Source: Fidelibacterota bacterium | GTDB lineage: Bacteria; Fidelibacterota; Marinisomatia; Marinisomatales; Marinisomataceae | Length of the DNA: 27,229 nt | Assembly (NCBI GenBank): GCA_036012065.1 | Contig: DASCOP010000079.1 | Span: forward strand, 1 to 27,229 | Direction of reading: 5' to 3' | In this document: in pieces, positions 1,091 through 27,229 of the stretch | How the letters are laid out: each line of letters begins with the position of its first letter | Numbering within the stretch: the first letter of the stretch is position 1 | Made by a program: the position numbers and the translations under genes | Notes under the pieces: model-generated | Databases searched by the model: none | What the model was told of the DNA's origin: nothing | Seen by the model: the letters and a program-made list of their open reading frames with translations, nothing else

Positions 1091-1091
1091 T

Positions 1092-2300: not shown

Positions 2301-2323
2301 TTATTCACCTTAAAATATCTGGT

Positions 2324-3919
2324 TTAAATCAATTTTCGATTGACTGGATCCCATTCAATTCTTCGACCAGTTAAATATGATTCTGTAGCCATATGACAAG
2401 CAACACCTTCATGAAGTGCTACCTCAATATTACATTTAGGCTGTCCTCCGCTTCTAATTGAATCTAGCCAGTCTTTAATATGAAGATGAGTTGGGTCAAC
2501 TCGTTTTCCCTCTCTATAAGTATATAATAGCCCTTTATTCGCAAAATATTTAGAAGTTGCTGATGTTACACCATCAATTTGCTTTGATCCAGGCGAATAG
2601 GTATAAATTGGATATTTTGAATTGATAATACCTTGCTCAATACGTTCTTTGTATTGCGTTGATTGAGAATCTGCTGTTACAATAAATCCATGCACAGATC
2701 CACCTCCACTTTGACCGCCCATTTGCATAGTCGCATCGTGGCCCATGATTCGATTCCCACGTGCTTCATTACTCGAAAGTGATGCACTATAAAGAACAGT
2801 TAAATCTTTATCTGGATATTCAAAAGTTGCATTCCAAACATCTGGGACATCGCGTCCATCTTTATAAAAATAAATTCCTCCTGTCGAAGATGAATATTTT
2901 GGAATTCCCAAATCCATAATTTGATTGATAGCATCAAAATCATGTGACAATAAATCACCCGAAAGACCAGTACCATAATCAAACCAACAACGCCAACGGA
3001 AGAATCGTTTCAATGCTTCTTCACCAAATGGTATTTTATTGGGGGCTGGCTCTTGAAAGGTATCCCAATCGATTGTTTGAGCATTGCCTTTAGGGTGAAT
3101 ATCCCAAACCCAAGCTCCCCATGGAGAATTACGGTTTGTAGTTAACTCCACTAGGTTTATTGTACCCAATAAGCCTTGTTGAACGATTTTTTTTGCTTTT
3201 TCATTAGCTTCTACCTGTCTATTTTGATGACCAAGCTGAAATGTAATTCCAGCCTCTTTTACTGCATCGTAAACTTCGATTGTTTCGTCAAATGTTCTCG
3301 TTAAACCTTTTTCACAATAAACATGTTTCCCTGCTTTTGCAGCATCGATTGTAATGCGGGAATGCCAATGATCTGGAGTAGCAATGATTACAGCATCAAT
3401 GTCATCATCGGCTAAAAGATCTTTATAATGGCGATATCTTGTAGCAGTTTTTTTCGGTTTTCCGCCAGGTCGCACTTCATTTTGAGAAGCATCTAAACCT
3501 TGTTCTGCACGTACATCAAACAAATCACAAACTCCCACAAGTGAGCAATTCAAATCTTCTTGATCCATAAATGTTTTAAATTGTTTATCCAATTTATTTT
3601 TTCGTGCATTCTCAGATACGGTATTAGTCCAACCCGTAGTAGCAAACCCCGCACCACGAACCAAGTGTCCACCTCGACCTCCATAACCAATAATACCAAT
3701 ATTTAAATGTTTGCTATCTGAAAGACCTTTGATGATAGCCGGTGCCGACTTCTTCTCTTGAACCAAACCAGAAAGGATATTTGATTTTTTTAATCTATCT
3801 CTGCGTATTTTTCTCCAAACTTGAGAAAGAAACAGGCCAAATACTGGTACAGTTGCAAGTCCTTTTAATAATTCTCGGCGGTCCAAATCATTGCTTTGCT
3901 GTTTATTATTTTCACTCAT
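2324..3919 (-). CDS. Gfo/Idh/MocA family oxidoreductase with N-terminal twin-arginine-like/anchor segment
   Basis: 531 aa. N-terminal DRRELLKG followed by hydrophobic LATVPVFGLFLSQVW; IGIIGYGGRG Rossmann motif; AVIIATPDHWH; YCEKG; FFRWRCWFDYGTGLSGDLLSH. An AGGA SD-like motif lies upstream. Confidence 0.9.
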   Translation of the reverse strand: MSENNKQQSNDLDRRELLKGLATVPVFGLFLSQVWRKIRRDRLKKSNILSGLVQEKKSAPAIIKGLSDSKHLNIGIIGYGGRGGHLVRGAGFATTGWTNTVSENARKNKLDKQFKTFMDQEDLNCSLVGVCDLFDVRAEQGLDASQNEVRPGGKPKKTATRYRHYKDLLADDDIDAVIIATPDHWHSRITIDAAKAGKHVYCEKGLTRTFDETIEVYDAVKEAGITFQLGHQNRQVEANEKAKKIVQQGLLGTINLVELTTNRNSPWGAWVWDIHPKGNAQTIDWDTFQEPAPNKIPFGEEALKRFFRWRCWFDYGTGLSGDLLSHDFDAINQIMDLGIPKYSSSTGGIYFYKDGRDVPDVWNATFEYPDKDLTVLYSASLSSNEARGNRIMGHDATMQMGGQSGGGSVHGFIVTADSQSTQYKERIEQGIINSKYPIYTYSPGSKQIDGVTSATSKYFANKGLLYTYREGKRVDPTHLHIKDWLDSIRSGGQPKCNIEVALHEGVACHMATESYLTGRRIEWDPVNRKLI

Positions 3920-3931
3920 AATACATTTCCT

Positions 3932-4396
3932 CTAATTTGATTTGGTGAATAATCGATCTAGACCAATTATGTGGCCAGTAGGGAATGTATACATTACCCA
4001 CAGAGCACAGGCCTCAATTAAATTTTTATTTACAATGATATAACTGCCTTCTCCGGGTCTGGAATATTCTAGACCAAGAAAGGGAGGTGCAAAAAGATAA
4101 TATAACATTACAAATCCCATGCCTACTAAAGCAGAATAGCGACTAAATAAACCTAAAAGAAGGGATACGCCAACTAAAGTTAAGCCCCACATATTCACAA
4201 AATCTGATATTGTCAATAAGGTAGGATTAGACGCAATGGTTTCGGCCAATCCTGAAAATATCCATTTCGAATCCAATAAATAAGCAGCTGAAGACCAATA
4301 TGGATTGAGTATTTTTGAAACACCTTCATACAAAAAATGCCAACCAATGAGAACTCTCAAAGTAACAAGGCCATATAGCTGAAACTTATTGTTTAT
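3932..4396 (-). CDS. DoxX family membrane protein; start uncertain (the track start at 4567 is unlikely)
   Basis: LRVLIGWHFLYEG, NMWGLTLVGVSLLLGLFSR, EGSYIIVNKNLIE and GLDRL are DoxX-type motifs across about 4 TM segments. No in-frame ATG lies near the expected N-terminus. ATA at 4396 would give (M)NNKFQLYGLVTLRV. Confidence 0.8.
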   Translation of the reverse strand: MNNKFQLYGLVTLRVLIGWHFLYEGVSKILNPYWSSAAYLLDSKWIFSGLAETIASNPTLLTISDFVNMWGLTLVGVSLLLGLFSRYSALVGMGFVMLYYLFAPPFLGLEYSRPGEGSYIIVNKNLIEACALWVMYTFPTGHIIGLDRLFTKSN

Positions 4397-4461
4397 GATT
4401 GACGAGTCTAAATTGTTTACATTGATTTTGAAATTTAAGGAAAAAAAATTTATATGCCAAC

Positions 4462-6315
4462 TTAAGATAGATTTTCGGCTACAATATCTGCTACATCTTT
4501 TACTTTGATAGGCTCTTGCCCAGAAGGAGTAAGTGGGCCAACTCCTTGATTCATCATACCATAACAAAAATTACATCCTGTTACAACCGTATCAGCCTTT
4601 GATTCAATCACCTGTTCTGCTCGTAATAGGTGAGTACGTCCTTCACCACCTTCTTTCTTCCACCACAGCGCTCCTCCAGCACCACAACATAGAGTTTGTT
4701 TTCCATTTTCATCTAGTTCAAAAAATTCTGGTGCAGCAGCTTTTATTGCATTTCTTGGTGCACTCACCTCATCAAGAGTTCGAGATAAATTGCAAGGATC
4801 ATGATAAGTTACCTTTTCTAAAGATCCCGGATTAATATTAATTTTTCCTTGCTCTAATAATTCTGAAATCACCTGCGTATGATGCTTGACTTCATATTTA
4901 ATCTCATGATACTTACTATATTCTTTTTGAAGATTGACTACGCAATGTGGACACATGGTTGTCACATTTCTAACCTTATTTAATTCTTTCACATTTTGAT
5001 CCATTAACAATTGATAGGTTAATTTGTCTCCTAGCTTATTGGCAGGGTCTCCAGAGCACTGCTCATTGCTTAATACTCCATATGTTACACCAGCCGAATC
5101 TAGAATTTTTGTAAAGTTCTTCACCGAAGTTATAAAATTTGGATCCATAGCATGTTTAGCAAAACAACCCAACCAAAGAACTAGCTCCTTATCGCTAGTA
5201 TAGACTGGCAGTTGCTGAAGTAATTCACTTGAGGATGCACCTTCTGTATTGCCTGTTTCTTGTAGATTGCGTAATAGTTTCTGATACTCCTGAGGAACAT
5301 CTCCTTCAGCTAATACTTGAAAACTTCTAATTTCATCTGCTTTTTCTACATGATTTCCAACAGGACATACTTCTGTACATGCTTGACATGTTGTGCACTC
5401 CCATCCCGCTTCTACATTAATTTTATTTACAACATTTACATCACCAGATTCCAACATAGGTTGCTTTAAATCCAATATAAAATGATATTTTGGATCCAAA
5501 ACTCCTCCTCCTCTATTTGCAGGACATACATCAGTACATCGACCACATTCAACGCATGTAAAAATATCGAGCGCTTGATCTTTGCTAAGTCGTGATAGAT
5601 CCAATAATAGGTTGTCTAACTCTTCTTCAGATGCTTCTAAATCTATTGGTATAGCTGGATGGTTAGGGATTTCAAATGGTCTTAGAAAAATATTAAATGG
5701 CGACAATACTAGGTGCATATGTTTTGATTTAGGAATTAAAAATAAAAAACCGCCAATTACACCTGAGTGTATCCACCAATTCACTTTAAATGCTAGCGGA
5801 CTCTTAAGTAAATGTAATTCATCAATGAGATAAGTAGTCATCAAAGTAACGATAAAAATAGCAACTACACCGGATGTTGCAGAAAACTTGCCTAAAGCCT
5901 TTGGTTTGAGAACGAACCTACGGTAAGCCAAAACCACAATACCAAATGAACATAGAAGAGCCCATGGGCCGCCAAATAATCTAAAATACCACAGGCGGAA
6001 TGTGTCATTAAATAAATGAAATCCAAATGCCATCAAGAAATGATTAATGGTAATTAATCCAAAAAAGATAAATCCGTACATAACAAATGCATGCATTGTT
6101 CCAGCAGATTTTCTTGCACCGCTTGCTACTTTCTTATGCAAAATTACTTCATCAAATACTCTTTTCAATCTATTAGGTAACTGATCAATGCTAAAGTCAG
6201 ATTTACCTTTTAAAACGATTTTTAATCGAAAAAGCAGTTGATATAGAAAGAAAGATAGCCCAGAAGATAAAAATAGGACTAATACTATTTGCTCTAATAG
6301 AGAGAAGGATACCAT
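4462..6315 (-). CDS. Membrane-anchored heterodisulfide-reductase-like Fe-S oxidoreductase (FadF/EtfD type; probable ETF:quinone oxidoreductase)
   Basis: 617 aa. N-terminal membrane domain with His residues (TMHAF, INHF, WIHS, SKHMH); two 4Fe-4S motifs (CVECGRCTDVCP, CTTCQACTEVCP); two CCG-type domains (GCF/CSGDP/CPHC and HDPC/CCGAGG/CNFC). It follows etfA directly. Confidence 0.88.
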   Translation of the reverse strand: MVSFSLLEQIVLVLFLSSGLSFFLYQLLFRLKIVLKGKSDFSIDQLPNRLKRVFDEVILHKKVASGARKSAGTMHAFVMYGFIFFGLITINHFLMAFGFHLFNDTFRLWYFRLFGGPWALLCSFGIVVLAYRRFVLKPKALGKFSATSGVVAIFIVTLMTTYLIDELHLLKSPLAFKVNWWIHSGVIGGFLFLIPKSKHMHLVLSPFNIFLRPFEIPNHPAIPIDLEASEEELDNLLLDLSRLSKDQALDIFTCVECGRCTDVCPANRGGGVLDPKYHFILDLKQPMLESGDVNVVNKINVEAGWECTTCQACTEVCPVGNHVEKADEIRSFQVLAEGDVPQEYQKLLRNLQETGNTEGASSSELLQQLPVYTSDKELVLWLGCFAKHAMDPNFITSVKNFTKILDSAGVTYGVLSNEQCSGDPANKLGDKLTYQLLMDQNVKELNKVRNVTTMCPHCVVNLQKEYSKYHEIKYEVKHHTQVISELLEQGKININPGSLEKVTYHDPCNLSRTLDEVSAPRNAIKAAAPEFFELDENGKQTLCCGAGGALWWKKEGGEGRTHLLRAEQVIESKADTVVTGCNFCYGMMNQGVGPLTPSGQEPIKVKDVADIVAENLS

Positions 6316-6331
6316 ATGGTATAGAATTTAC

Positions 6332-7303
6332 TTACTTTTTAAGTTCTTCTGTCAATTTTGGTACAATTTCCATTAAATCGCCAATGACAGCGTAATCTGC
6401 AATTTCAAAAATAGGAGCTTCCTCATCTTTGTTAATTGCAATAATATTTTTTGAGCCTTTCATACCTACTACATGCTGAATAGCACCAGAAATACCTACA
6501 GAGAAGTATAGCTTAGGTGAAACAGCTTGTCCTGAACTTCCAATCTGTCTGTATGATGGCAACCAGCCCATATCAACTACGGGTCTCGATGAGGCTATTT
6601 CTGCCCCCATTGCTTCTGCTAAGGATTCGACCATAGGGATGTTATCCTCGCTTTCAATTCCTCTACCAACAGATACGATTAAATCTGCTGTAGTTAAGTC
6701 TACACCAGAAGAAGACTCTTGAAACTCTGGCTCGCTAATAGACTTAATGTCTTCATTGTTAAGATTTACTTCAAATACAGATGCCGCATCAGAACCTCCC
6801 AATTCTATATCATCACTAGAAAATGCTGCAGACTGAAAACTAAGAAGTGTTGTATTGTTACTTGCATCTGACTCAATATTAGTAGCAAGTTTTGCATTAA
6901 ACACTTGACGCGCAAATGCCGGGGTATCTCCATCATAAGTAACGGATATAATATCACTCACAAATGGTAAATTTAATTTTGCACTTACTCTAGGTAAGAA
7001 ATCACGTACCATATAAGAGTGTCCCATAATAACATATTGAGGAGATAAATCTGTAATAACATCTGATAACACTTTTGAATATCCATCAGCAGAATATGTA
7101 TTAATCATATCATGTTCTGCTAAGATTAAATCTTTTGCTTTGTATTCGCTAGCTTGTTCTTTGAGTGAGCTAGCATTTTCACCCATACATAAAATAGATA
7201 ATTCCATGCCTAACTTAGATGCTAAGCTTTGTCCGGCAGCTACTGCTTCTCTACTAAAAGCATGAATATTTCCTCTTTGATTTTCTAATACAACTAAAAT
7301 CAT
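6332..7303 (-). CDS. etfA: Electron transfer flavoprotein alpha subunit
   Basis: DLIVSVGRGI, SSRPVVDMGW, RQIGSSGQAVSPKLYFSVGISGAIQHVVGM and AINKDEEAPIFEIADY motifs. ATGA overlap with etfB. Confidence 0.96.
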   Translation of the reverse strand: MILVVLENQRGNIHAFSREAVAAGQSLASKLGMELSILCMGENASSLKEQASEYKAKDLILAEHDMINTYSADGYSKVLSDVITDLSPQYVIMGHSYMVRDFLPRVSAKLNLPFVSDIISVTYDGDTPAFARQVFNAKLATNIESDASNNTTLLSFQSAAFSSDDIELGGSDAASVFEVNLNNEDIKSISEPEFQESSSGVDLTTADLIVSVGRGIESEDNIPMVESLAEAMGAEIASSRPVVDMGWLPSYRQIGSSGQAVSPKLYFSVGISGAIQHVVGMKGSKNIIAINKDEEAPIFEIADYAVIGDLMEIVPKLTEELKK

Positions 7304-8067
7304 GATACTACTCTTAGTTTATTTTTTAATACATCCATAAGTTTTGCAACTATTCCATCAACATCACCTTCAATTTTCTCTGTAGCTTTCTCATTTTTAG
7401 GAATAAATAAATTAATAAAATTTTGTTTTTGTAAACCAGGTTGTCCAACGATTACTTTTGATTCTTTGCGTTTAGCACCCATGATTCCTTTTAATGAAGG
7501 ATATCGTGGCTCATTAATACCAGATTGTATAGATACGCTAGCTGGAAAAGGCAGTGTTACCCATTGGAACCATCCAGACTCTAGCTCTCTCTTAACTTTA
7601 ATTTTACTTTCTTGAATGTCAGTTTCAATGCCTAAAGTTGCAGTAGACATACCTAACATTTCGCCAATAAGCACTCCAGTTTGTCCAGATCCTAAATCAT
7701 CTGATTGTAAACCAGAAAAAATGATATCAAAATTTTCATCTTTGATGTTGTCAGCAAATAATTTTGCAATTGTTAATGGATCGGTGTTGGAATCTTCATT
7801 TTTAATAAAAATAGCTCGATCAGCACCTTTAGCAAGGCCATCTTTAAGAACTTTTGATGTATTATCTTCAGACCCCATTGTTATCACAACAACCTCACTG
7901 CTATTATCTAGCTTTTCTTTAATTTGTAATGCTTCTTCCAAAGCATATGAGTCACTTTCGTTGACTACGAAGTTTACAACTGCTTCATCAATCCATTTTG
8001 ATGTGGAATCTATTCGAATACTAGATTCATAGCTTGGAATTGCCTTTGTTAATACTGCTATTTTCAT
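7300..8067 (-). CDS. etfB: Electron transfer flavoprotein beta subunit
   Basis: NESDSYALEEALQIKE, LAKGADRA, GLQSDDLGSGQTG and NEPRYPSLKGIMGAKRK motifs. Confidence 0.96.
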   Translation of the reverse strand: MKIAVLTKAIPSYESSIRIDSTSKWIDEAVVNFVVNESDSYALEEALQIKEKLDNSSEVVVITMGSEDNTSKVLKDGLAKGADRAIFIKNEDSNTDPLTIAKLFADNIKDENFDIIFSGLQSDDLGSGQTGVLIGEMLGMSTATLGIETDIQESKIKVKRELESGWFQWVTLPFPASVSIQSGINEPRYPSLKGIMGAKRKESKVIVGQPGLQKQNFINLFIPKNEKATEKIEGDVDGIVAKLMDVLKNKLRVVS

Positions 8068-8100
8068 AATTCAAGGTCAATATAATAATATTTTTTTAAC

Positions 8101-8132
8101 AAAAACAATAAAAAACCGACTAGATAGTCGGT
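8101..8132 (-). terminator. Perfect 8-bp inverted repeat followed by a U-rich tract on the minus strand (terminator, or alternatively an operator)
   Basis: ACCGACTA (8115-8122) -GA- TAGTCGGT (8125-8132). On the minus strand it is followed by TTTTTATTGTTTTT (8114-8101). Confidence 0.6.
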
Positions 8133-8146
8133 AATAATATTTTGAC

Positions 8147-8220
8147 AAAAAAAACAGGCTATAAAAGAAAGTTGATAAGCGGGGGAAAGTCTTTCAATCT
8201 TTCGAAATTTTTATAGCCTG
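8147..8220 (-). terminator. Long imperfect hairpin plus U8 tract (terminator-like; possibly part of a small structured RNA)
   Basis: CAGGCTATAAAA (8155-8166) pairs with TTTTATAGCCTG (8209-8220). Inner helices GAAAG/CTTTC, TTGA/TCAA and AAG/CTT are present. A8 at 8147-8154 gives U8 directly 3' on the minus strand. Confidence 0.65.
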
Positions 8221-8285
8221 AAAATTTTTACTCGTTCTAGCAATTTAATGGTAAGGGTGAGGTATTGTAAAGTAAAAAATCTCTA

Positions 8286-8687
8286 TTAGGAGTCAGAATC
8301 TTCTGTAGCAAACTTGGTCCAATCACTTGATATTGCAGATTCATCAATAGAAGTTTCTGATGGTGCTGTAGGATTATTAAATTTTGCATCATCTTCATAT
8401 ATATTCAAGCTATCTTTCTTTACTTCATACTTATCAAGATCCAATTCTTCATCCTCGCTATCTAAAGTTTCTTTATCTTGACTATATAAGTCTAAATCAA
8501 AGAAATCTAAGTTTTCTACGTGACCATTCTCCATGAGGTACTCAAGGAATGGCAGGTATATTCTTTGTTTGAGATTCGCCTTACACAATGGACATCTTAG
8601 CTTAGTTCCAATGTCTGAAGCTCTTATTTCTTCGTCACAACAAGGGCTAATAACTTCATCTACTCTATTTAAATCAAAATCATTCAT
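8286..8687 (-). CDS. Hypothetical protein with a putative Zn-binding CC-x14-CxxC motif and an acidic C-terminal region
   Basis: 133 aa ORF filling the gap between neighbours. Contains PCCDEEIRASDIGTKLRCPLC; about a quarter of residues are D/E. Confidence 0.7.
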   Translation of the reverse strand: MNDFDLNRVDEVISPCCDEEIRASDIGTKLRCPLCKANLKQRIYLPFLEYLMENGHVENLDFFDLDLYSQDKETLDSEDEELDLDKYEVKKDSLNIYEDDAKFNNPTAPSETSIDESAISSDWTKFATEDSDS

Positions 8688-8721
8688 ATAAGGACGAAGG
8701 TATTATTAGTTATCTATGGAG

Positions 8722-9489
8722 TCAACAATTTTTGTAAATACTATTTAAGGCTTCTTTCTTAGACGAAGAAAATGTTTTATCCCTTCTTTTCATAGCTTTC
8801 TCTGCAGTATCACAAAAGTCATCAAATTTGATTTTCATTAACTTATCTTTGTAGAATAATGAAAAGGCAGGAATATGTCTTGGAGGAAAAGATTGTGCAA
8901 CAATATTACAACCCATCTCAATCACTGTTCCGGTATTGAGAGTTGTCCCAATTGCTGTTTTAACATGCTCACCAATAATAGAGCCAAAAAATATCGATTC
9001 TGTATCTAATAGTTCTCCGCTCCATTTAACTTTTACAGATGAATAATTATTTTTGAGATTGCTAGTAGTGGTCCCTGCACCAAGATTGGCCCATGATCCA
9101 ATAAAACTATGCCCTAAAAATCCTTCATGCGCTTTATTAGAATATGGCTGAAAAATACAAGAGTGGACTTCTCCGCTCACTTTACAGTCGTGATTAATAA
9201 TAGAATTTGATATAGTAGAATGAGATTTTACTAATGTATTTTTTCCCAGAAATAAAGGTCCATTTAGCACAGTAAAAGGTTCTACTGTTGCAGTATTATC
9301 AATGACTACTGGTCCAGTCTCTTCATTAATAACAACATTATCAATTACGCTATTAGAAGATGAAATATCTGATAATAAATCACTAATCTTATGAATTAAA
9401 TCCCAAGGTTTATTATTATCAAGAAAAGAGCTTGGCTTGTCTAATAATATTAGATTCGATACAATAATATTTTTTAAATCTTTATTCAT
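8722..9489 (-). CDS. GlmU-like left-handed beta-helix acetyltransferase (FCB/archaeal-type), lacking the N-terminal nucleotidyltransferase-like domain
   Basis: PWDLI, hexapeptide repeats, NKAHEGFLGHSFIGSWANLGAGTTTSNLKNNY, FFGSIIGEHVKTAIGTTLNTG and AMKRR are typical of this family. Only 255 aa. ATGA overlap with the upstream ORF. Confidence 0.8.
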   Translation of the reverse strand: MNKDLKNIIVSNLILLDKPSSFLDNNKPWDLIHKISDLLSDISSSNSVIDNVVINEETGPVVIDNTATVEPFTVLNGPLFLGKNTLVKSHSTISNSIINHDCKVSGEVHSCIFQPYSNKAHEGFLGHSFIGSWANLGAGTTTSNLKNNYSSVKVKWSGELLDTESIFFGSIIGEHVKTAIGTTLNTGTVIEMGCNIVAQSFPPRHIPAFSLFYKDKLMKIKFDDFCDTAEKAMKRRDKTFSSSKKEALNSIYKNC

Positions 9490-18122: not shown

Positions 18123-18869
18123 TTGAATACTATATTATCTACTTTATTTCTTTCTCTATTATTATCATCTAATCTTATTGCTCAATCTGGCTTTGTAACA
18201 AAAGAAAGCACTATAGCATCGTTTAAAATGGGATCTATGAAATCTTCTACTTATAGTTACTTCTCTGAAAATTCTTACTACTCTAAAATGGGTTTTTCAT
18301 TTAAAGGTAAGGGTCTTGCAAGACTTATGAGTAGAGATATAGAGAATGGGACTGTGATTTCATTTGAAGATTCTACTATTGTAAAAATTAATTATAAGAA
18401 AAATCGTTTTACCAGACAATCATTTTCAGAATTTTTAGCAGAAAAAAATTCTTCAGAAGAAGAGCAAACTGATAATCAGTCTGAAAATGAAGAATCGGAT
18501 GAGGGTGATTCCGATCCTATAGTATCTGATACTCCAGAAATGATCAATGGTTTCGAATCATATAAAATTACTCTAGATGATGGTGAAAACAAGCAGTTCA
18601 TTTGGGTTACTGCAAAAGAAGAACAATCTGATCTTGTAAAAACTATGAAAGAAAGAATTGTTAAATTTGAGGATAACTGGGGAAGTTTTGATATTAATTT
18701 TTCAGAATTGGGTATGAATGAAAATGCCATTCTTGTTAAAGCAGTTTTTAGTGATGAAGATGGTAGTTTTGAATATAATTTAGAAAAATATGCCCCAATA
18801 AATGGAATACCAGAAATGTTCAATATGTCGAAAGATTACAAAAAAGTTAAAAACCTAAAAATGTTCTAA
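18123..18869 (+). CDS. Secreted hypothetical protein, DUF4412-like
   Basis: TTG start. Sec signal peptide ending LIA|Q. Beta-rich body with EMINGFESYKITL..IWVT and a C-terminal MFNMSKDYKKV, which recalls the DUF4412 F-x-x-P-x-x-Y-K ending. Acidic internal linker. Confidence 0.6.
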   Translation: MNTILSTLFLSLLLSSNLIAQSGFVTKESTIASFKMGSMKSSTYSYFSENSYYSKMGFSFKGKGLARLMSRDIENGTVISFEDSTIVKINYKKNRFTRQSFSEFLAEKNSSEEEQTDNQSENEESDEGDSDPIVSDTPEMINGFESYKITLDDGENKQFIWVTAKEEQSDLVKTMKERIVKFEDNWGSFDINFSELGMNENAILVKAVFSDEDGSFEYNLEKYAPINGIPEMFNMSKDYKKVKNLKMF

Positions 18870-19609
18870 GATTTTTCCTTTTTTAATTGTTTAATCATAT
18901 CGTTATACATTAATTCTTCTCTCTTATAAGGCCTATCCAAATCAGTAGCTTCTCTAAATAGAAGTAATGCATCATCTTTTCTTCCAGTCTTCTGATAAGT
19001 TTTACCTAGCCAGTAATATGTACCAATATAATTAGGCTCTAATTCTAAACTCTTCTTTAGAAAATACTCTGCCATCTCAAAAGAACCTTGAGGTGGTTCT
19101 TCAAATATGATTGTAGCTAATCGACGTGATAATGAACTAATATCAGCAAGACGATAATGCCATTGTCCCATTATGTTATAACAAAAAGGATCATTGGGAA
19201 GTTGTTCAATAGCTTGCAAAGAATGGAACTCAATAATTTTAGAGCTTTCAATTTGTGTCCTTATATTTTGATTTTCAACGCTTTTACCGTATGAAACCGC
19301 ATACCATTTATGCACTTGAGCATTAGTAGAATCAATAGACATAGCTTCAACAATATATCCTAACGCCTTGTCCATATTCAATTTTTCTACTTTTTTTTCA
19401 TCCGCTTCTTCCGATAAGAAATGATGTGCTGCCGATAAACGCACTAAAACGTCTATATTTTTTGGAAAAGTGTTATTTAATTTTTGAAGTGGAATAATTG
19501 TTTCTTTGAAATTCAGATTATCTAAATCAATATCAATCTTACTAAAATCTTGCGCATATAAAGCGCTTGCTCCTAAAAAAAGAAAAAATAATTGGATATT
19601 CTTAACCAA
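18866..19609 (-). CDS. Secreted TPR protein of the RMDN1-3 (regulator of microtubule dynamics / PTPIP51)-like family
   Basis: TTG start; signal peptide ending LYA|Q. HKWYA...AIE..PND....MGQWHY..A......R..A..IF..PP..S.E.A......S.E..P follows the RMDN1 TPR pattern as I recall it. Confidence 0.75.
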   Translation of the reverse strand: MVKNIQLFFLFLGASALYAQDFSKIDIDLDNLNFKETIIPLQKLNNTFPKNIDVLVRLSAAHHFLSEEADEKKVEKLNMDKALGYIVEAMSIDSTNAQVHKWYAVSYGKSVENQNIRTQIESSKIIEFHSLQAIEQLPNDPFCYNIMGQWHYRLADISSLSRRLATIIFEEPPQGSFEMAEYFLKKSLELEPNYIGTYYWLGKTYQKTGRKDDALLLFREATDLDRPYKREELMYNDMIKQLKKEKS

Positions 19610-19617
19610 AATATTAA

Positions 19618-20658
19618 TTAAGGATAAAATGATAAAAATACTGGCTGATGATCTGAGATTCTATCAGCAACAGTGCTTGGAACAGTCCCAGTTTCATCTG
19701 GAGTAACAATCACACCCATTGTTGCTGTTGTTTCATATTGGAATAGAGGTGTATTAATTATTATGTGATCAAAGTGTGCTGGTGCATATGAGCTTGTCCA
19801 ACCCTGCCATGAATATCCACTACTTGGACCAGTCAAAATATCTTCATCAATCATAACAAAGCTTTGGGATGAAGCAATGCTAGTATCAGTAAAAGGACTA
19901 ATAGTTGGATTAGTAATAGATTGATCCCCTACATTATTAAAATCGCCAGCAATAATAACATTGTCAGTTGATCTGTTGTTAATAATATAATCAGTTAATA
20001 GCAAGCTCGCATGATGTCTTCTAGTAGTTTCATCTCCTGAATCATTGCTATCATATGTATCATCTCCACAACATTTATAATGGACATTTATCACGTAAAG
20101 ATCCATTGACTTAGTTCCATCAGTCCATGTGATATAACTTTCCATCGGAGGTCTACTAGCAAATTGGTATTGTGCATTGTTACTATAATCTCCATCTCCA
20201 TCATTGCTGTTTGGTGTATCTGACCACAATTCATTCTTAGATACAAATGTTACATTTCCAGTCTTATAAACTAATGCAAATCCAAGATTTCCAGATTCTT
20301 CATCTAAAACATATGAATAGTTTGTCATAGAATTTAACATTTCGATTAATTCAGCTTTTTTCGCATTACTGCCACTTACTTCTTGAAATAAATAAATATC
20401 AGCATTCCATTTTTCTAATAATGCTTTAACATAATCAATTGAACTACTATGCTGAGGAAAATTTCGAATATTCCATGTAACTATTTCTATTTGATTTAGT
20501 TGATCTAGATTGGTTGCATTTGGAAAATCGTAAGGATCAGTTCCATCGCCAGGATCAGTTCCATCGCCAGGATCGGTCGGAGAAGAACTTCCGCCGCCGC
20601 CACAAGCAAAAATTGCTAACAATAAAAGGATAAATAATCTATTGATGAGTTGAGCCAT
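19618..20658 (-). CDS. Endonuclease/exonuclease/phosphatase (DNase I-like) lipoprotein
   Basis: Lipobox IFAC. The full EEP catalytic set is present: TWNIRNF, FQEV, NVHYK, AGDFN, FDHII and SDHQPV. Confidence 0.88.
   Translation of the reverse strand: MAQLINRLFILLLLAIFACGGGGSSSPTDPGDGTDPGDGTDPYDFPNATNLDQLNQIEIVTWNIRNFPQHSSSIDYVKALLEKWNADIYLFQEVSGSNAKKAELIEMLNSMTNYSYVLDEESGNLGFALVYKTGNVTFVSKNELWSDTPNSNDGDGDYSNNAQYQFASRPPMESYITWTDGTKSMDLYVINVHYKCCGDDTYDSNDSGDETTRRHHASLLLTDYIINNRSTDNVIIAGDFNNVGDQSITNPTISPFTDTSIASSQSFVMIDEDILTGPSSGYSWQGWTSSYAPAHFDHIIINTPLFQYETTATMGVIVTPDETGTVPSTVADRISDHQPVFLSFYP
20533..20574. repeat. In-frame 18-bp tandem repeat (about 2.3 copies) encoding DPGDGT linker units
   Basis: AGGATCAGTTCCATCGCC is identical at 20533-20550 and 20551-20568, followed by AGGATC. 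Confidence 0.92.
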
Positions 20659-21568
20659 AGATATAATTTACTAATAAAGTTCCGACTTGTCCTAAGCTTT
20701 GTGGTGAACAATTCTTTGGGGTGTCATATTGAGTATGCCAATAATTATAAAACATATTTGGATATTGAAAATCAATAATATCAATTGCTGGTATTTGTGC
20801 TAATTCCCATAAAGGAACATGATCATCATAAATTTCATTTTCAATTTTCTTTTTAAAGGCAGGCAATGATAGTTCTTCTGCTAAACTCCATATCTCTTTT
20901 ACCTTATCTGGAGCAATGCTATATGAGATTCTTTCAATAGGTATAGTCAGATTCTTATCTCCAACCATGTCCACAATAATTCCAAAATCTGGTTTTTGAA
21001 TAGGAAGATTTTCAGCAAAAAATTTTGACCCAAGAGCAAAGGTTTCTGGTTGTCCTACAATACCGCCATCTTCAGCATCAAAAAATATAACATCAACACC
21101 AATATCTGGATTATAAACCGAAAGAATCTGGCATAATTCCATCAGAACTGCTGTACCGCTTGCTCCATCATTTGCTCCGAGAACTGGCAGACTCTGTTTA
21201 TCTAAAGACTCATCTTGATCCGATAAAGACCTTGTATCCCAATGTGCGCCAATTAAAAGACGATAGTTTGCCTTTTGATTGAATTGAATAATAAAATTTT
21301 TACCATCTCTTTCTGTGTTCGTAATGGGCTCTGTATAAACAAATTCCTGGATAATAAGATTTTCTGATAAATCACTTAAGAAATCGTTTAAATAATTGCT
21401 GAAATCAATGGCTCCATTCGAACCTGGATTCCTTGGACCAAATTCACATTGTTTTTCTAGATATGTAAATGCTTGATTAGAATCAAAAACAGGAATATTG
21501 GGGGACTGTTTTGATTTTTCTGTATTACAGCTGAATAAAAATAAAACTAAAAATAATATTTTTTTCAT
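20639..21568 (-). CDS. M28-fold lipoprotein, probable type II (Zn-dependent) glutaminyl-peptide cyclotransferase
   Basis: Probable start ATG 21568 (MKKILFLVLFLFSC, lipobox). Motifs GPRNPGS, GAHWDTR, GANDGASG, FFDAED, DMVGD, DDHVP and YWHTQYD. Confidence 0.75.
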   Translation of the reverse strand: MKKILFLVLFLFSCNTEKSKQSPNIPVFDSNQAFTYLEKQCEFGPRNPGSNGAIDFSNYLNDFLSDLSENLIIQEFVYTEPITNTERDGKNFIIQFNQKANYRLLIGAHWDTRSLSDQDESLDKQSLPVLGANDGASGTAVLMELCQILSVYNPDIGVDVIFFDAEDGGIVGQPETFALGSKFFAENLPIQKPDFGIIVDMVGDKNLTIPIERISYSIAPDKVKEIWSLAEELSLPAFKKKIENEIYDDHVPLWELAQIPAIDIIDFQYPNMFYNYWHTQYDTPKNCSPQSLGQVGTLLVNYIYGSTHQ

Positions 21569-21569
21569 C

Positions 21570-24500
21570 TTACCCTCTAATTGCCACATTAAGGTTCACT
21601 CCAAAATCACGATCAATTCTACGCCCTGTTAATCTAGTATCATTTTCACGATATTCATAAAATAAGCTACCAGAAACATCATCTGTTAATGAGTAAGTCA
21701 CTCGTAATACGCTCTTCATTGTATTGGTAAAGTTTTGTTCAGCAAAATTAATTTTATCTTTTGATCCTTCTTCTTTTTTCTGACTAATATCAAAATTTAA
21801 AGTGATATTCATATTATTTTTTAAGTATACATTCTTTTCTGTAAATGGCAATGAGAATCTAATCCCCTTAGAAAAATTATAGGTGATACTAGCTAATATA
21901 CTATTATCAGAAATATAAGTTAGACCATTTGCAACCTCATCTAAAGTATGAGTAATATTAGTTCTTACATTTGTTGATATACCATTTTTGAAAGAAGTGG
22001 TAATACCTAAGAGCGGTGTAAAACTACGAGAAGTACGTGAAAACTGTCTATTATCATCATTATCATCTGCAAATGATGAGATACTAAATAAATCAATTGC
22101 ACCAATACTGTCATCATTAAATTTCCAAGATAAATTCTCTTTTCCGCTAAACGAATGCTCTAAAGAAAGAGAATTAACATAAGGAGATATAAACTTAATT
22201 TTTTCTAAACCTCCTACACGTAAAGACCAATTAGAAAAAGGTATGCCCTTTGATAGCTTGTTACCATATGCAAGGTAATCTCTGCTAATAGATCTTGTAT
22301 CAATATTATAACCATTAATATTAGATGAAATACTTTCAGAAAAAGATATATTCAAAGACGTGCTCGGGTTAAAGCGCACCCCTGTTCTAATTGATAATGA
22401 TTTTTTGATATCCTCTGCTCCTGTATTAAGACCTACTTCTGGTACATTCTCTAATTCATGATCACTGCTTAGTCCAAATCTATAGCTCAAAGGAACATCG
22501 CCCATGACACCATTACCTGTTCTATTTGTATTATTAGTAATAGCAATACTTAAAGGTTCTATTTTTTTTGACATTTGATAAATTTGTTCCATGACAAAAC
22601 TATTTTCTATTTTTCTATTTTTCTTTTTCTGCTCAGATTTATCCAATTCAAGATTTTTATTGTTTTCTTTATCTTCAGCTTCACTGTCACTACCTCTTGA
22701 TAAGCCTGCCGGTACAGATCTTGATCTGGTTGTTGGGGTTGTTGCTTTTCTTTTAGAGGCTGGAGTATAAAATGTCTCAATAATCTCTGTACCAGATAAT
22801 GCAAAATTAATCCCTGTATTCTTAACAGCAGATACATTTGCTCCATTAATCACGCTAGATAAAGGCTTGTTCCATGAATAATTTGTGTTGTAAGTAAAAT
22901 TGGGTTTAAACCAACTTAACCATTGAGGATTGAATGTAGATCCAAAAGATTCAGTACTATTTACGACCCTTCCTATTTTCAAATTATCCAATACTTCTTC
23001 CCTATATTCAGACATATCACTTTTAATATTTTTATTGTATGTAAACTGTGTGTTATCAAATACCTTATAATTAATACTAAACTTTCTATCTAAACCCAAG
23101 TTAAAATCGTCAATCAACTCTGGATTAGCCCTTGATTGCTTTTCTGTTAAATTCCGATTAACTCTTATTCCTGTAGCAAATGATGTTGGAGTATAAAAAA
23201 ACTTAGTTTCACTAATCTTTTCTCCAACAACTGGCACCTTTGACATCCATTTAAATGCTTCAATATAGTTATCACTAGGAAATCTGAGATTATAATCAAC
23301 ATTTGTGGTTAATCTCTGAGTATCTACCGACTCCATAATCTCATCAGATCTATTTTGATTAGACATATTAAATGATGCGCTAAGATTGTCAATTGTATAT
23401 TTAACGAAAGGATTCTCTGATTTAATTTGCTTTGATATCTTACCATTCAAAGAAATTGTAGATGATTTTACTAATATAGAGTCTGGTGTTGCCCCGTTAG
23501 TTCTAATATCGGTTCCTGGGAAAAATTTTGGTGCATTATTTTGCATGTTATATGTCATATTAACTGGAAAAGAAATACCAAACCTTTGAGGAAATAGACT
23601 GCCTATTTGCATATTATTTGTAAAGATAAGATTTTCAGTTGTGGTGTTTGTTCCTACTCTTTCTTGGAGAATGTGGAAATCTGCATCTTTTTTACTATAA
23701 GATATAGAGCTCTTATTAAAATCAGATAAATTAAATTCAGATTTTAATCTTACTGCTGTTCCATTTTCCTTTTTTACTCCACTTAAGCGAAGTTCATCTA
23801 ACCAAATCTCACCTGTAATTGGATGGTCAGCATTATTTTCAACTCCTACAATAAAATATTGCAATCTTGATAATGAAGGTTGGCCTACAATCTCAACTTT
23901 TTTATACTCTTGATTATTGTCATCAATAAATTGATATCTTTTGTATCCCAATGAGTCAGTGAAGGTATCATTGGCATTAATCTTTTCAATAGACTCTTCA
24001 TCTATATTCTTTAAACTGGTCAACCAATTTAGGTCAAGATCTACGGCATTTCTCTGTTCATCTTCATCCCAACCATCATACACTGGCTTCGTGAGCTTGT
24101 AATATTCATCTCCAGTACCAAATTTGATAAAAAATCGTAAATCCGTATTACTATCTGATATATTTTCACTATCACCATAAACAAACATTTTCATTTGGTC
24201 GTACATCAAAAAGCTTTGTCCTTTTTGAGATGTCATAGAAGATAAAATTTTCCTTGCTGCTCCTTTAAAGTCTGGATTTAAATTATCAAACCTGAGAACT
24301 AAAGACTGCTCTTTGGATCGTATCTTATTGATTTGATCGTACTCACCAAAAACACCTTTAGGAGGTATATAATCAGGATTATCTTCATCGTTCACTACTG
24401 TCACTAAAAATGTGCTATCTTGTACTGCATAGTTATCTTGGTCTACAAGAGATGTACCCATCTCCTCCCATGCATTTCCTACAAGTTCAATTTTTGCAAT

Positions 24501-27229
24501 CTCTAGCTGTGAGGGTTTGTCAATTCCAGATACTACAAGCCTTACATACTTAATTTCGCTAAGCGTAATATCCTGTACTTTAGCAAAATGATTTAAAGGT
24601 ATTCTTATTAATTTCCAACCTGTTTCTGTACCGTTTACTATAGTAGAACCAGCAACATATGTACTATCATCTAAAGAGATAGTTTTTGTAAAATAATCAT
24701 TTGTCCTATCTAAGAAACCTGACTGATCCAAATCTTCACTATCAGGATATTTACCTCCAGCTTGAATTCTATCGCCAGTACCATTTCCTTCTGTACCATT
24801 AACCTTTGTATAGTCTGAACTACCTTCAATATAATCCCAATTATCACCATTTGGATCATTAACATTTACATCAGATGAAGCGTTGATAATTGATATTTCT
24901 CCGCTAGACAAGTAATCTTGATAGGTTAGTCCATCTTCTTGGCTCAAACAATCTCCCCAGCCATCTTCAAAACTATCAAAACAACCATCGAGTCCTGTAT
25001 CTTCACTATCTTCTAAGAATCCATTACCAAGGGCTAATCCTGCATCTGGAACATCTTCGTTATTCAGAGATCCGTTATCATTGTAGTCTTCACTAATTTT
25101 GCCTAAATCCACTGTTAAATTACCTTCATCTCCACGTAACCAAATTTCAAAAAATCTGCTTCTAGTTTGATCATAATCAGATATAAACATTGGAGTAATT
25201 ACGCCAGCCCATACAGAGTCAGGATCTACGGTTTCTTGATATTCTTTTGGTTCAAAATCTAAAACTAAAATATCTGTAGTAAGATTTTGTGCTCTTTGCG
25301 ATGTAGAAATATTCGGCCAAATATTATTTGTTAATACTTGGGAATAAGGATTGTACCAATGCATTCTCGCTCGATTTCTTTGATTAAAAGATTGATTGGT
25401 ATCAAGATTTAATGGAGCGGAAGAAATATTCCAAAATCTTCTCAATATTGATGGACTTGTAACACGTTTTGAGCCCTCAAAGTCATCGATATAAGCCACC
25501 CCATCACTGTCTCCAATAGCAGAGTTAGATATCGCATTGGGGTTAGGCAGTACTTGTGCGATTTCTCCTTCTAAAGTAAACCTAGATAACTTTTCAGCAT
25601 TAAACATATCAAGATTATTTAGAGATGCAGATAAATTCTCTAAATCCTTCTCATAACGACCATTAATATCCCAAATAAAATTTCGGATTGGTTCAAAGCC
25701 TACTTCTACTTTTTTATTAACAATATCCTGATTGTAATAAAGAGCTGTCATTCCTAAGAATGAATTTTTATCAAAATCAATTTGTGCACGAGAACCAACC
25801 ATAATTTTTCTATCGAATGTAACTAGGTCATGCTTATCATATACAATTTCTAAATCACTATTGGGATCAATATTGCCAGTAAGCATTATCATCCCAGAAA
25901 AATAATCAATCTGATAATCTTGACCTCTTTCAAGTTTCTCTCCATTAGAATAAATCTCTTCACTCCCCTCTACTAATGTAAATCCTAGATTAATAGTAGA
26001 CTTTGGATTGGTATAATTTGCTGCAATGGTAAAACGAGAATCTCCTGTATATTCTGTACGATTAGTGCTCGTATACATTTTACCCTGTTGGAGTAAAGAG
26101 TTTAATGTCGAATTATCATTTCCACCGTCCAAATTATTACTTGAAACAAAAGGTAGGAGTGCAGGTAAATGCACTTCTCCTGCTTTCAAATTCACAATAT
26201 TAGGGTTATTAAAATCAATAATTTCATCCGGTGAAGATGCACCGGATTGATTAAGGTTATCTAATCCAAATAAATTTAAGAATGTGGCACCACTGTTTGT
26301 TCTATCGCTTACAGGTGTAGAAAAATTATCTAGAATTCTAACGCCTAAACTAGTTTCATCAATATTAGTTGCTCCAAGAGAGTATACATTCTTAAACATA
26401 AGATCCCATGTTGGATGATTAGGGTGTGATGACTGTGCTTTTAGCATCTTCAAGACTAAGGTGGTATTGCCATCATCCCCAATATTTGATCCAACCTTTA
26501 AAACAACTTCTCCTGTTGTTCTATTTGCCAATTCAAAATGTGTACCTATAATTTCATTTTGAAGAGTATTTTGCATTCTTATAAATCCTAAATCTTCGTT
26601 AATGGCATAGTCGGAGCCTCGTTCTAGCTTAATAAACGCTCCTTCTTTACTACTATCATTATAAAGGGTGGTATCGTTAGGATCAATATATGCTGTTCCT
26701 GGATCTGCTTGTGGATTGTTAGATGCATCAATTTTATAAAGCTCAAAATTTCTTACTACTAAATTACCAATACTATGCAATCCGTTATTTAAAGGATAAT
26801 AAGAAGGTACATTGACTTGAAATCCGCTATCTGGTATTATATCAGAAGAACCATTTCTAAACCATTCGTGGATAAAGAAATATAGATTTTTTCTATACTC
26901 ATAATCTTCTATCTGATTTTCTCTTACTTCAGAAGTGCCTTTGTATTTTTCAGATTGCTTCTTGGTTCTCTCCAGTGATGCTATACTCGTAATGTTAAGT
27001 GGACCTAACTGTGAGAGAGCTTTAATACCAAAGAGACCTTTATTTTGTCCTGAAAATGTGACAAACTCAGTAGAAGGTAGTGCAAGCGAGATATTTCCTA
27101 TTTCAAGTCTTTGTAAAATATCATCTTCATCTCCAGCATAATCAACACGAATAGTATTCTCCCAATCAAAGTCTCTTTCGGAATTTTGATCTAAAGATAT
27201 AGTGATTCTTTCACCAACCTTCCCTTGAA
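21570..27229 (-). CDS. sprA: SprA/Sov family giant outer-membrane beta-barrel (T9SS translocon homologue), 5'-partial
   Basis: The frame is open from 27227 (at least 1885 codons); the ORF-track start at 26780 is internal. The upstream part reads QGKVGERITISLDQNSERDFDWENTIRVDYAGDEDDILQRLEIGNISL...GLFGIK, the SprA N-region pattern. Downstream: WDLMFKNVYSLG, GEIAQVLP, YIDDFEGS, RARMHWY, DPNGDNW, NGTEGN, PDSED, GEIWLDELRLSG and a C-terminal beta-signal-like FGVNLNV. Confidence 0.92.
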   Translation of the reverse strand, partial: QGKVGERITISLDQNSERDFDWENTIRVDYAGDEDDILQRLEIGNISLALPSTEFVTFSGQNKGLFGIKALSQLGPLNITSIASLERTKKQSEKYKGTSEVRENQIEDYEYRKNLYFFIHEWFRNGSSDIIPDSGFQVNVPSYYPLNNGLHSIGNLVVRNFELYKIDASNNPQADPGTAYIDPNDTTLYNDSSKEGAFIKLERGSDYAINEDLGFIRMQNTLQNEIIGTHFELANRTTGEVVLKVGSNIGDDGNTTLVLKMLKAQSSHPNHPTWDLMFKNVYSLGATNIDETSLGVRILDNFSTPVSDRTNSGATFLNLFGLDNLNQSGASSPDEIIDFNNPNIVNLKAGEVHLPALLPFVSSNNLDGGNDNSTLNSLLQQGKMYTSTNRTEYTGDSRFTIAANYTNPKSTINLGFTLVEGSEEIYSNGEKLERGQDYQIDYFSGMIMLTGNIDPNSDLEIVYDKHDLVTFDRKIMVGSRAQIDFDKNSFLGMTALYYNQDIVNKKVEVGFEPIRNFIWDINGRYEKDLENLSASLNNLDMFNAEKLSRFTLEGEIAQVLPNPNAISNSAIGDSDGVAYIDDFEGSKRVTSPSILRRFWNISSAPLNLDTNQSFNQRNRARMHWYNPYSQVLTNNIWPNISTSQRAQNLTTDILVLDFEPKEYQETVDPDSVWAGVITPMFISDYDQTRSRFFEIWLRGDEGNLTVDLGKISEDYNDNGSLNNEDVPDAGLALGNGFLEDSEDTGLDGCFDSFEDGWGDCLSQEDGLTYQDYLSSGEISIINASSDVNVNDPNGDNWDYIEGSSDYTKVNGTEGNGTGDRIQAGGKYPDSEDLDQSGFLDRTNDYFTKTISLDDSTYVAGSTIVNGTETGWKLIRIPLNHFAKVQDITLSEIKYVRLVVSGIDKPSQLEIAKIELVGNAWEEMGTSLVDQDNYAVQDSTFLVTVVNDEDNPDYIPPKGVFGEYDQINKIRSKEQSLVLRFDNLNPDFKGAARKILSSMTSQKGQSFLMYDQMKMFVYGDSENISDSNTDLRFFIKFGTGDEYYKLTKPVYDGWDEDEQRNAVDLDLNWLTSLKNIDEESIEKINANDTFTDSLGYKRYQFIDDNNQEYKKVEIVGQPSLSRLQYFIVGVENNADHPITGEIWLDELRLSGVKKENGTAVRLKSEFNLSDFNKSSISYSKKDADFHILQERVGTNTTTENLIFTNNMQIGSLFPQRFGISFPVNMTYNMQNNAPKFFPGTDIRTNGATPDSILVKSSTISLNGKISKQIKSENPFVKYTIDNLSASFNMSNQNRSDEIMESVDTQRLTTNVDYNLRFPSDNYIEAFKWMSKVPVVGEKISETKFFYTPTSFATGIRVNRNLTEKQSRANPELIDDFNLGLDRKFSINYKVFDNTQFTYNKNIKSDMSEYREEVLDNLKIGRVVNSTESFGSTFNPQWLSWFKPNFTYNTNYSWNKPLSSVINGANVSAVKNTGINFALSGTEIIETFYTPASKRKATTPTTRSRSVPAGLSRGSDSEAEDKENNKNLELDKSEQKKKNRKIENSFVMEQIYQMSKKIEPLSIAITNNTNRTGNGVMGDVPLSYRFGLSSDHELENVPEVGLNTGAEDIKKSLSIRTGVRFNPSTSLNISFSESISSNINGYNIDTRSISRDYLAYGNKLSKGIPFSNWSLRVGGLEKIKFISPYVNSLSLEHSFSGKENLSWKFNDDSIGAIDLFSISSFADDNDDNRQFSRTSRSFTPLLGITTSFKNGISTNVRTNITHTLDEVANGLTYISDNSILASITYNFSKGIRFSLPFTEKNVYLKNNMNITLNFDISQKKEEGSKDKINFAEQNFTNTMKSVLRVTYSLTDDVSGSLFYEYRENDTRLTGRRIDRDFGVNLNVAIRG

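Follow-up and report, generated by a model that had tools for sequence, protein, structure and literature searches.

We report a conserved gene pair, sprA and the gene of a glutaminyl cyclase (QC), at one end of a 27,229-nucleotide stretch of DNA (the window: positions 1 to 27,229 of contig DASCOP010000079.1, assembly GCA_036012065.1) from a small marine genome of the Marinimicrobia (SAR406), which are among the most abundant lineages of the deep ocean. SprA is a homologue of the outer-membrane translocon in type IX secretion systems (T9SS), and its gene lies on the minus strand at positions 21570-27227 (the feature runs to 27229), 5′-truncated and open at the contig end. It is followed on the same strand, at 20639-21568, by the gene of a 309-residue lipoprotein, which sequence, motifs and lipobox identify as a bacteroidal-type type II QC. 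These two genes form an old conserved unit, which is the core of the finding. Two further minus-strand genes come after it, encoding a lipoprotein of the endonuclease/exonuclease/phosphatase (EEP) family and a secreted TPR protein. The explanation that we favour, and hold to be fairly probable, is that the old sprA-QC unit serves the capping of exported proteins that follow the Q-rule (Gln at position +1 after signal peptide cleavage), that the EEP-TPR genes joined it by compaction, and that SprA works with a reduced partner set. What is new is that two known systems, the T9SS translocon and the Q-rule cyclase, occur in a phylum from which descriptions of both have been missing. In the literature on Marinimicrobia/SAR406 with T9SS and on QC with T9SS, we found no description of the sprA-QC pair, and no paper describing the four-gene combination, which the sequence-only reading had likewise not known as described.

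The gene order carries the finding. The coordinates of SprA, QC, TPR and EEP were compared in 41 genomes (G- and L-numbers below are the genome and locus labels of the analysis). QC immediately follows sprA, with both genes on one strand, in all 22 genomes of the genus that have QC, and in 15 of the 15 genomes of other families of the order in which QC was found. In twelve of the latter, the QC start lies at most about 130 nucleotides from the last SprA match, and in all 15 at most 1 kb away. Each genome has a single QC gene, and it invariably comes right after sprA. In the 15 families sampled from this order, 37/37 genomes keep the pair, with variable flanking genes (prmA, a cargo protein or EEP). 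Adjacency was found again in distant Marinimicrobia (L020, L022 and L023, the last two with prmA after QC), in the metagenome-assembled genome (MAG) L024 and in the Calditrichia MAG L049. Further contexts of QC were read at sampled 50%-identity representatives of the QC family, the closest listed homologues, at least 120 in number, being all close Marinimicrobia. Among these representatives, sprA lies immediately upstream of QC in two high-GC lineages, L068 (GC 56%, with a 4-nucleotide overlap) and L069 (68% GC). At four other sampled representatives (L071, L073, L074 and L075) sprA is not adjacent; two of these, L071 and L075, look Bacteroidota-like from their neighbours (SprB-type cargo, a hybrid two-component system). 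The expectation that the order would be conserved in related genomes is thus borne out for all four genes within the genus and, beyond the genus, for sprA-QC only.

The identity of SprA is clear. The protein scores 672.4 bits with TIGR04189 against a cut-off of 200, model positions 13-2299 being covered in pieces, and 117 bits with SprA_N. The whole protein has about 2,070 residues, of which 1,885 are in the window; the N-terminus, encoded by the first ~190 codons, is found on contig C59 of the same assembly, whose end overlaps the end of the window. Orthologues in 22 genomes of the genus have 2,034-2,104 residues. The signal peptide, MRKIYLSTIFLFLSQVMG, would be cleaved at ...SQVMG↓VEH, so that SprA is a giant (>2,000 residues) Sec-exported protein whose mature form starts with Val, without Gln at +1. 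Like SprA of Flavobacterium johnsoniae and Sov of Porphyromonas gingivalis, it is a clear homologue over nearly the whole of TIGR04189 and comes from a genome with PorV-like barrels and Por_Secre_tail cargo. In contrast to the SprA/Sov proteins of Bacteroidota, it is about 300 residues shorter and belongs to Marinimicrobia; it stands without detectable GldK/L/M/N in the order and without PorU in the genus genomes tested. Its gene shares a probable operon with a glutaminyl cyclase gene, whereas sov of P. gingivalis does not.

The closest loci belong to MAGs of Candidatus Neomarinimicrobiota/Marinimicrobia (SAR406), to the single-amplified genome SCGC AAA160-B08 and to the closed 969,550-bp chromosome OZ243041.1. 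This agrees with the sequence-only reading, which had held the lineage to be probably not Bacteroidetes, and points to a streamlined Marinimicrobia/SAR406 lineage of about 1 Mb. The assembly of the window amounts to 0.80 Mb and is 82% complete. The genus comprises at least 24 species of 0.7-1.1 Mb, except for one 0.4-Mb assembly that is 56% complete, and the other families of the order have genomes of 1.8-3.2 Mb.

The cyclase was assigned from structural homologues and from its zinc site. Pfam gives Peptidase_M28 at 98 bits. A search of the PDB returned 6qro first (E 4.9e-48), then 3gux, 3tc8, 4fuu (1.2e-44) and 6qql (1.5e-41), with human QC at about 1e-7. The zinc-ligand motifs GAND134, AE166-D167 and DDH250 align to 6qro; by this alignment the mono-zinc residues would be D134, D167 and H250, and the bacteroidal-specific Asp follows the catalytic Glu166. 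In the P. gingivalis enzyme (PgQC), the single zinc is bound by Asp149, the bacteroidal-specific Asp183 and His299 (PMC7948796). The lipobox LFS↓C, with C14 as the lipid Cys, predicts anchoring as a lipoprotein. The protein thus resembles PgQC (PG_2157), TfQC, PiQC, BtQC (4fuu), 3tc8 and 3gux in sequence (E 1e-41 to 5e-48), mono-zinc motifs, lipoprotein anchor and the accompanying enrichment of Gln at +1. It differs from the bacteroidal QCs in occurring outside Bacteroidota, and its gene is fixed behind sprA, whereas that of PgQC heads the PG_2157-2159 operon. These data uphold the earlier assignment to the bacteroidal type II QCs, for which the Q-rule provides plausible substrates; as judged from homology, the enzyme most likely converts the N-terminal Gln of exported proteins to pyroglutamate. 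Two other observations on QC genes were made. In the Poribacteria chromosomes (L025-L048, L050) there are homologues that share 39-44% identity with this QC, and SprA is missing from the 8 kb around them. The QC gene at G021:C3:40783-41692 contains in-frame stops (TGA, TAG, TAA); the MAG is 72% complete, and the stops mark a pseudogene or else a fault of assembly.

We then asked how the N-termini of the genome look. Signal-like starts, defined as N-terminal charged-then-hydrophobic sequences, were found in 172 open reading frames genome-wide. Beyond the hydrophobic core, the polar residue met first is Gln in 56 of the 172 (33%), where composition predicts 7.6%; the count was made by a crude heuristic without SignalP and without a control genome that does not follow the Q-rule. 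This share reached 63% where the hydrophobic core ends in Ala or Gly, and 32 explicit ...[ASG]↓Q sites were counted in the genome. The genome follows the Q-rule. Gln stands at +1 in both PorV-like barrels, in an M43-like cargo peptidase (contig C6), in the TPR protein (Q20) and in orf248, a convergent neighbour of the TPR gene; Q20 of the TPR protein is invariant in 23 homologues, even where identity falls to 26%. In the literature, the Q-rule and type II QC have been called exclusive to Bacteroidetes (PMC10653852). Scattered high Q-values outside Bacteroidetes have been noted, and the 'striking phylogenetic coincidence' of high Q-values and T9SS was pointed out in 2018 and left unexplained (PMC5837995).

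From these elements the following scheme can be proposed. SprA would serve a type IX-like export pathway as its translocon in the outer membrane. The QC lipoprotein, most likely held on the periplasmic face of a membrane, would cap as pyroglutamate the +1 Gln that signal peptidase I (SPI) leaves on most exported proteins, and the cap would shield these proteins from aminopeptidases. The predicted substrates are the PorV-like barrels, the peptidase cargo tagged with the Por_Secre_tail C-terminal domain (CTD), the TPR protein and orf248, and not SprA. Production of cyclase and pore from the same transcript would tie the capping capacity to the export machinery. The EEP-TPR genes would have come to abut sprA-QC as intervening genes were lost in genome reduction; nothing demonstrates a role of EEP or TPR in secretion. 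Export might be unpowered, or powered by an unrecognised part or by a motor too divergent for the models.

Several observations weigh against this scheme. To our knowledge, Bacteroides has QC and follows the Q-rule while lacking a T9SS. PgQC is encoded away from sov, at the head of its own operon (PMC10653852), and pyroglutamate has been argued not to control T9SS export (PMC5837995). Since QC occurs without T9SS in Bacteroides and PgQC lies away from sov, the sprA-QC pairing is not mechanistically obligatory. The activity of the window QC and the pyroglutamate N-termini are predictions from sequence, and the enrichment of Gln comes from the crude screen described above. As regards the transcript, RNA libraries gave a few short, low-depth contigs of relatives, 90-99% alike; one of them spans the QC/EEP junction, and together they do not suffice to show the sprA/QC junction or a single transcript. 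The tight packing of the genes, discussed below, is the norm of this genome and says nothing on coupling, and the models by which the motor was sought have the limits given in the next paragraph.

Motor (GldLM) and ring (GldKN) are considered necessary for export through the T9SS. The genome contains three proteins over the cut-off of TIGR04183 (Por_Secre_tail CTD) and a fourth below it, and this cargo, as found in the canonical T9SS of Bacteroidota, includes a PKD protein, the M43-like peptidase and an FG-GAP/LVIVD/fn3 protein. Two PorV-like barrels are present, with 118-124 bits for NF033710, below its equivalog cut-off of 250. For the better of the two, the orthologue in G013 reaches 69 bits with Pfam PorV against a cut-off of 27 and lies beside bamD; the second paralogue is weaker and follows a 1,080-residue protein and a TonB-dependent receptor. 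Using models for GldL/GldM (TIGR03513, TIGR03517, PF12081) and GldK/GldN (TIGR03525, TIGR03523), nothing over cut-off was found for GldK, GldL, GldM, GldN or GldM_1st in 41 Marinimicrobia genomes (completeness is 90% or more in 24), with models that are Bacteroidota-trained and were run without a T9SS-bearing Bacteroidota as positive control, so that a divergent motor could be missed. The search for the GldK/GldN ring gave no match in the genus, the closed chromosome being included for GldK. Sub-threshold matches to GldK in the larger Marinimicrobia G032 and G034 were rejected, as they are FGE-sulfatase-domain proteins; the one in G032 adjoins a sulfatase gene. For the sortase PorU (NF033707), the only matches in G000, G013 (99% complete), G005 and the closed G041 are the CTDs of cargo proteins.

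The picture is different in larger genomes of the same order, where PorU scores over cut-off at 604-660 bits (G032:C6:4296-7529 and G038:C7:77797-81012). These two 2-Mb Marinimicrobia have 26-37 CTD matches, as compared with only three CTD cargo proteins in the ~1 Mb genus genomes tested. The T9SS has thus been reduced stepwise with genome size, PorU and many CTDs being found in the 2-Mb relatives and neither in the ~1 Mb genomes tested. Furthermore, a single gene of the MotA/ExbB/TolQ family was found in each of two genomes, the near-complete G013 (G013:C4:65573-65935) and the closed G041 (G041:C1:2099-2455); any outer-membrane process that the proton-motive force powers must therefore share this lone stator or use an unrecognised motor. 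In contrast to the canonical T9SS of Bacteroidota, then, no GldL/PorL-GldM/PorM motor and no GldK/PorK-GldN/PorN ring scores over cut-off in the 41 genomes, and PorU was not detected in the genus genomes tested. The sequence-only reading had suspected that SprA might work here with a reduced or different partner set, and had noted that PorV, Plug and Gld/PorK-N genes are missing from the window. Both the absence from the window and the reduction are seen in these data: PorV-like barrels and three to four CTD cargo proteins accompany SprA, whereas the genomes searched within the genus yielded neither GldK/L/M/N nor PorU. From these model searches, the motor appears to be absent.

One side observation concerns the neighbourhood of the weaker barrel. 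At L063 (G013:C4:122000-133000, 28-6405) and on contig C16 of the window's own assembly, a TonB-dependent-receptor-like gene, the gene of the 1,080-residue protein and that of the DUF5723/PorV-like barrel are arranged in one string; the 1,080-residue protein has no Pfam match and a weak CTD.

The reading opposed to a true absence of the motor is that a divergent motor and ring of the GldLM/GldKN type exist beyond the reach of the TIGRFAM and Pfam models, and that the T9SS of these bacteria is canonical in architecture. The training of the models on Bacteroidota without a positive control speaks in its favour. However, all five models failed over 41 genomes, while the PorU and SprA models, which come from the same source, score strongly in the same order. 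Moreover, the ~1 Mb genomes offer little room, with one MotA/ExbB/TolQ-family gene only. We regard a hidden motor as unlikely, although it is the alternative to be taken most seriously.

If the reduced partner set is taken at face value, Marinimicrobia may run a SprA-PorV export of CTD-tagged proteins with neither a GldLM motor nor a GldKN ring, and the ~1 Mb genus may do so without PorU as well. Such a pathway would amount to a minimal type IX core, perhaps an ancestral one, with the glutaminyl cyclase as its only constant genetic partner, and the Q-rule and SprA could then be two halves of one ancient export-stabilisation trait across phyla related to the Fibrobacteres-Chlorobi-Bacteroidetes group. 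We put this wider proposal forward tentatively, as it is more doubtful than probable. The observations behind it bear on published views in three respects. First, the Q-rule and type II QC, published as exclusive to Bacteroidetes, are both seen in SAR406, where the gene of the cyclase keeps its place beside sprA. Second, a conserved sprA-QC operon would make the coincidence of T9SS and Q-rule directly testable. Third, 41 Marinimicrobia genomes with bona fide SprA, PorV-like barrels and CTD cargo yield no GldLM/GldKN, which touches the requirement for motor and ring. The small closed genome OZ243041.1 is a compact place in which to establish a minimal parts list of SprA-dependent export, and the arrangement suggests how an abundant streamlined ocean heterotroph may display its few surface peptidases and adhesins.

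A second alternative concerns the pair itself. The adjacency of sprA and QC could be inherited synteny without functional meaning, the cyclase being a general enzyme of the Sec pathway. Several facts are in line with this: QC acts on all SPI substrates, not only on those of T9SS (PMC10653852), pyroglutamate was argued to be no control of T9SS (PMC5837995), SprA itself has no Gln at +1, and QC family members have no neighbouring sprA in the two Bacteroidota-like contexts (L071, L075), nor in L073 and L074. Against it stands the persistence of the pair in 37/37 genomes of 15 sampled families though the flanking genes change, and its presence in Calditrichia as well as in two lineages whose GC is 56% and 68%. 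Because the pair survives order-wide and in distant lineages, synteny without selection is hard to accept, and we consider this explanation improbable.

Downstream of sprA-QC, the gene of the 346-residue EEP lipoprotein (PF03372 and lipobox) occupies positions 19618-20658 and that of the 247-residue RMDN (RMD1-3)-like TPR protein (PF21033 and TPR repeats; TTG start) positions 18866-19609, both on the minus strand. The sprA gene ends with TAA at 21572-21570 and QC begins with ATG at 21568, leaving a spacer of 1 nucleotide; QC and EEP overlap by 20 nucleotides, and 8 nucleotides separate the EEP stop from the TPR start, all three figures being those of the sequence-only reading. The targeting of all four products to the envelope, claimed there as well, was also read from the sequence, with signal peptides in SprA and TPR and lipoboxes in QC and EEP. 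At its far end the string meets orf248 (18123-18869, plus strand), a gene known from its translation and included here as context, encoding a secreted 248-residue protein with a signal peptide ending ...NLIA↓QSG and no Pfam match. The stops of TPR and orf248 overlap by 4 nucleotides (18866-18869), so that no space is left for a terminator between them. On contig C59, rdgB overlaps the start of sprA by 8 nucleotides; the co-directional string is therefore rdgB-sprA-QC-EEP-TPR, which in the genus is probably one transcript.

The near-zero spacing was rejected as a sign of coupling. The coding share of the window is 97.3%, and the median same-strand spacer outside the four genes is 12.5 nucleotides (16 other gene pairs, unrelated neighbours such as L27/mdh included), so that the string is no tighter than its background. 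Since tight spacing is background, the evidence for linkage is the conserved gene order. A scan for promoters and terminators was uninformative, promoter-like sites being fewer than in shuffled sequences and terminators at chance level.

The sequence-only reading had gone further and taken the four genes for one maturation-and-export module. In such a module, the TPR protein might assist SprA in the periplasm, as an adaptor or chaperone comparable to PorW/SprE or Plug, while EEP might be a processing enzyme or a client. Within the genus, the order sprA-QC-EEP-TPR, followed by convergent orf248 and mdh, is indeed kept, with identities that reach down to 63% (SprA), 62% (QC), 55% (EEP) and 50% (TPR): EEP follows QC in 22/22 genomes and TPR follows EEP in 20/22. 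The retention of the four-gene order in about 20 species favours a module, as do the common targeting to the envelope and the position of EEP and TPR on the same strand near sprA-QC in G038, G040, G026 and G030. The exceptions are, however, telling. In G004 and G016, sprA-QC-EEP is followed directly by mdh, TPR and orf248 having been lost together; elsewhere in the genus the place of orf248 is conserved. Outside the genus, G038 has on one strand sprA-QC, then a CTD-like protein, two unknowns and asparaginase II, then EEP-TPR-NUDIX-QueG, which puts EEP-TPR 4.4 kb from sprA-QC with four unrelated genes between. In G040, a double-EEP protein and TPR are encoded upstream of sprA. In G026 and G030, TPR lies on the strand of sprA-QC at a distance of 12-22 kb, and in G027 and G028 it is on other contigs. 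Furthermore, nine other families of the order yielded no TPR, and four families that have TPR gave no EEP at E<=1e-8. EEP-TPR is thus a second, older and looser pair, separate from sprA-QC. Because G038 has four intervening genes and two species of the genus have lost TPR, the four-gene string is the product of compaction, not a demonstrated module, and a single module is not supported beyond sprA-QC; the fold of the TPR protein, which matches lipid-binding RMDN3 and BstC and no part of T9SS, points the same way. Even with the EEP-domain CTD cargo found 5 kb from sprA-QC in the unrelated L068 (described below) also counted in its favour, we hold a four-gene module to be quite improbable. A fusion of EEP and TPR (P0120) lends it no support, since we read it as an artefact of deletion, assembly or gene calling: it consists of EEP without its C-terminal ~65 residues and of the full TPR precursor, signal peptide included. 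It was noted besides that the protein directly after QC in G038 (540 residues; L051 7617-9239) has a FlgD_ig/CHU_C-like C-terminal end and is a probable T9SS cargo; two proteins of about 300 residues and of no known family follow it, and all three have been lost in the streamlined genus.

The EEP protein scores 45 bits with PF03372 (Exo_endo_phos) against a cut-off of 24.5. Its lipobox is IFA↓C with C19 as the lipid Cys, followed by a disordered tether rich in G/S/P/D. N63, E93, D239, N241, D297, H298, D336 and H337 are invariant in 24 homologues, together with C19. The predicted model (pLDDT 82) has as nearest folds TDP2, nocturnin, PDE12 and the Bacteroides EEP proteins 3mpr/3g6s, with TM-scores of only about 0.5/0.7, and a sequence search against the PDB gave no match. 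Like these members of the superfamily and like MnuA and ExeM/NucH, the protein has PF03372 and the full set of invariant catalytic-type residues, and like MnuA it is a lipoprotein. It differs in being near no subfamily cut-off, the models of the nuclease subfamilies MnuA and ExeM-NucH giving 32.5 against 185 and 31.5 against 300 bits. The name 'nuclease' used in the first reading is therefore a weak call. From its sequence, EEP is a predicted metal-dependent phosphodiesterase, for which DNA, RNA, a nucleotide or a lipid head group are all conceivable substrates. The family is almost confined to marine Marinimicrobia. In the lineage L068 (GCA_003695105.1, GC 56%), which is unrelated, a 580-residue protein with Exo_endo_phos, LTD and Por_Secre_tail domains is encoded at 7190-8932, 5 kb downstream of sprA-QC; there, an EEP enzyme is itself a T9SS cargo.

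The TPR protein scores 59 bits with PF21033 (RMD1-3) against 26.7 and contains TPR repeats; its signal peptide, ...ALYA↓QD, is cleaved before Q20. By sequence it finds 7cc7 in the PDB with E 7.7e-17. Its model (pLDDT 91) has as best fold the same entry, the TPR domain of RMDN3/PTPIP51 (TM-scores 0.76/0.82, root-mean-square deviation 2.1 Å, 24% identity), and the next compact match is the periplasmic sterol carrier BstC (7t1s, TM-score 0.65). It shares with both an all-helical TPR-like fold of about 230 residues. Unlike RMDN3/PTPIP51, it is bacterial, Sec-exported and marked by an invariant +1 Gln, with no link to microtubules or mitochondria. By analogy with these folds, it may be a periplasmic all-helical protein that binds lipid.

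The last alternative, that the M28 protein is an aminopeptidase and not a glutaminyl cyclase, could draw on Pfam, which says only Peptidase_M28, and on weak NCBIfam aminopeptidase matches, but it is scarcely credible, for bacteroidal type II QCs, or structural-genomics twins of these, take the first seven places among the PDB matches (E 1e-30 to 5e-48) while true aminopeptidases reach only about 1e-5, the bacteroidal QC-specific Asp is present after the catalytic Glu, and the genome has matching substrates with Gln at +1.

Elsewhere in the window, EtfB-EtfA and then a 617-residue Fe-S/CCG-domain oxidoreductase are encoded at 6332-8067 and 4462-6315, with acyl-CoA dehydrogenase and methylmalonyl-CoA mutase nearby; this region belongs to ordinary fatty-acid and amino-acid catabolism.

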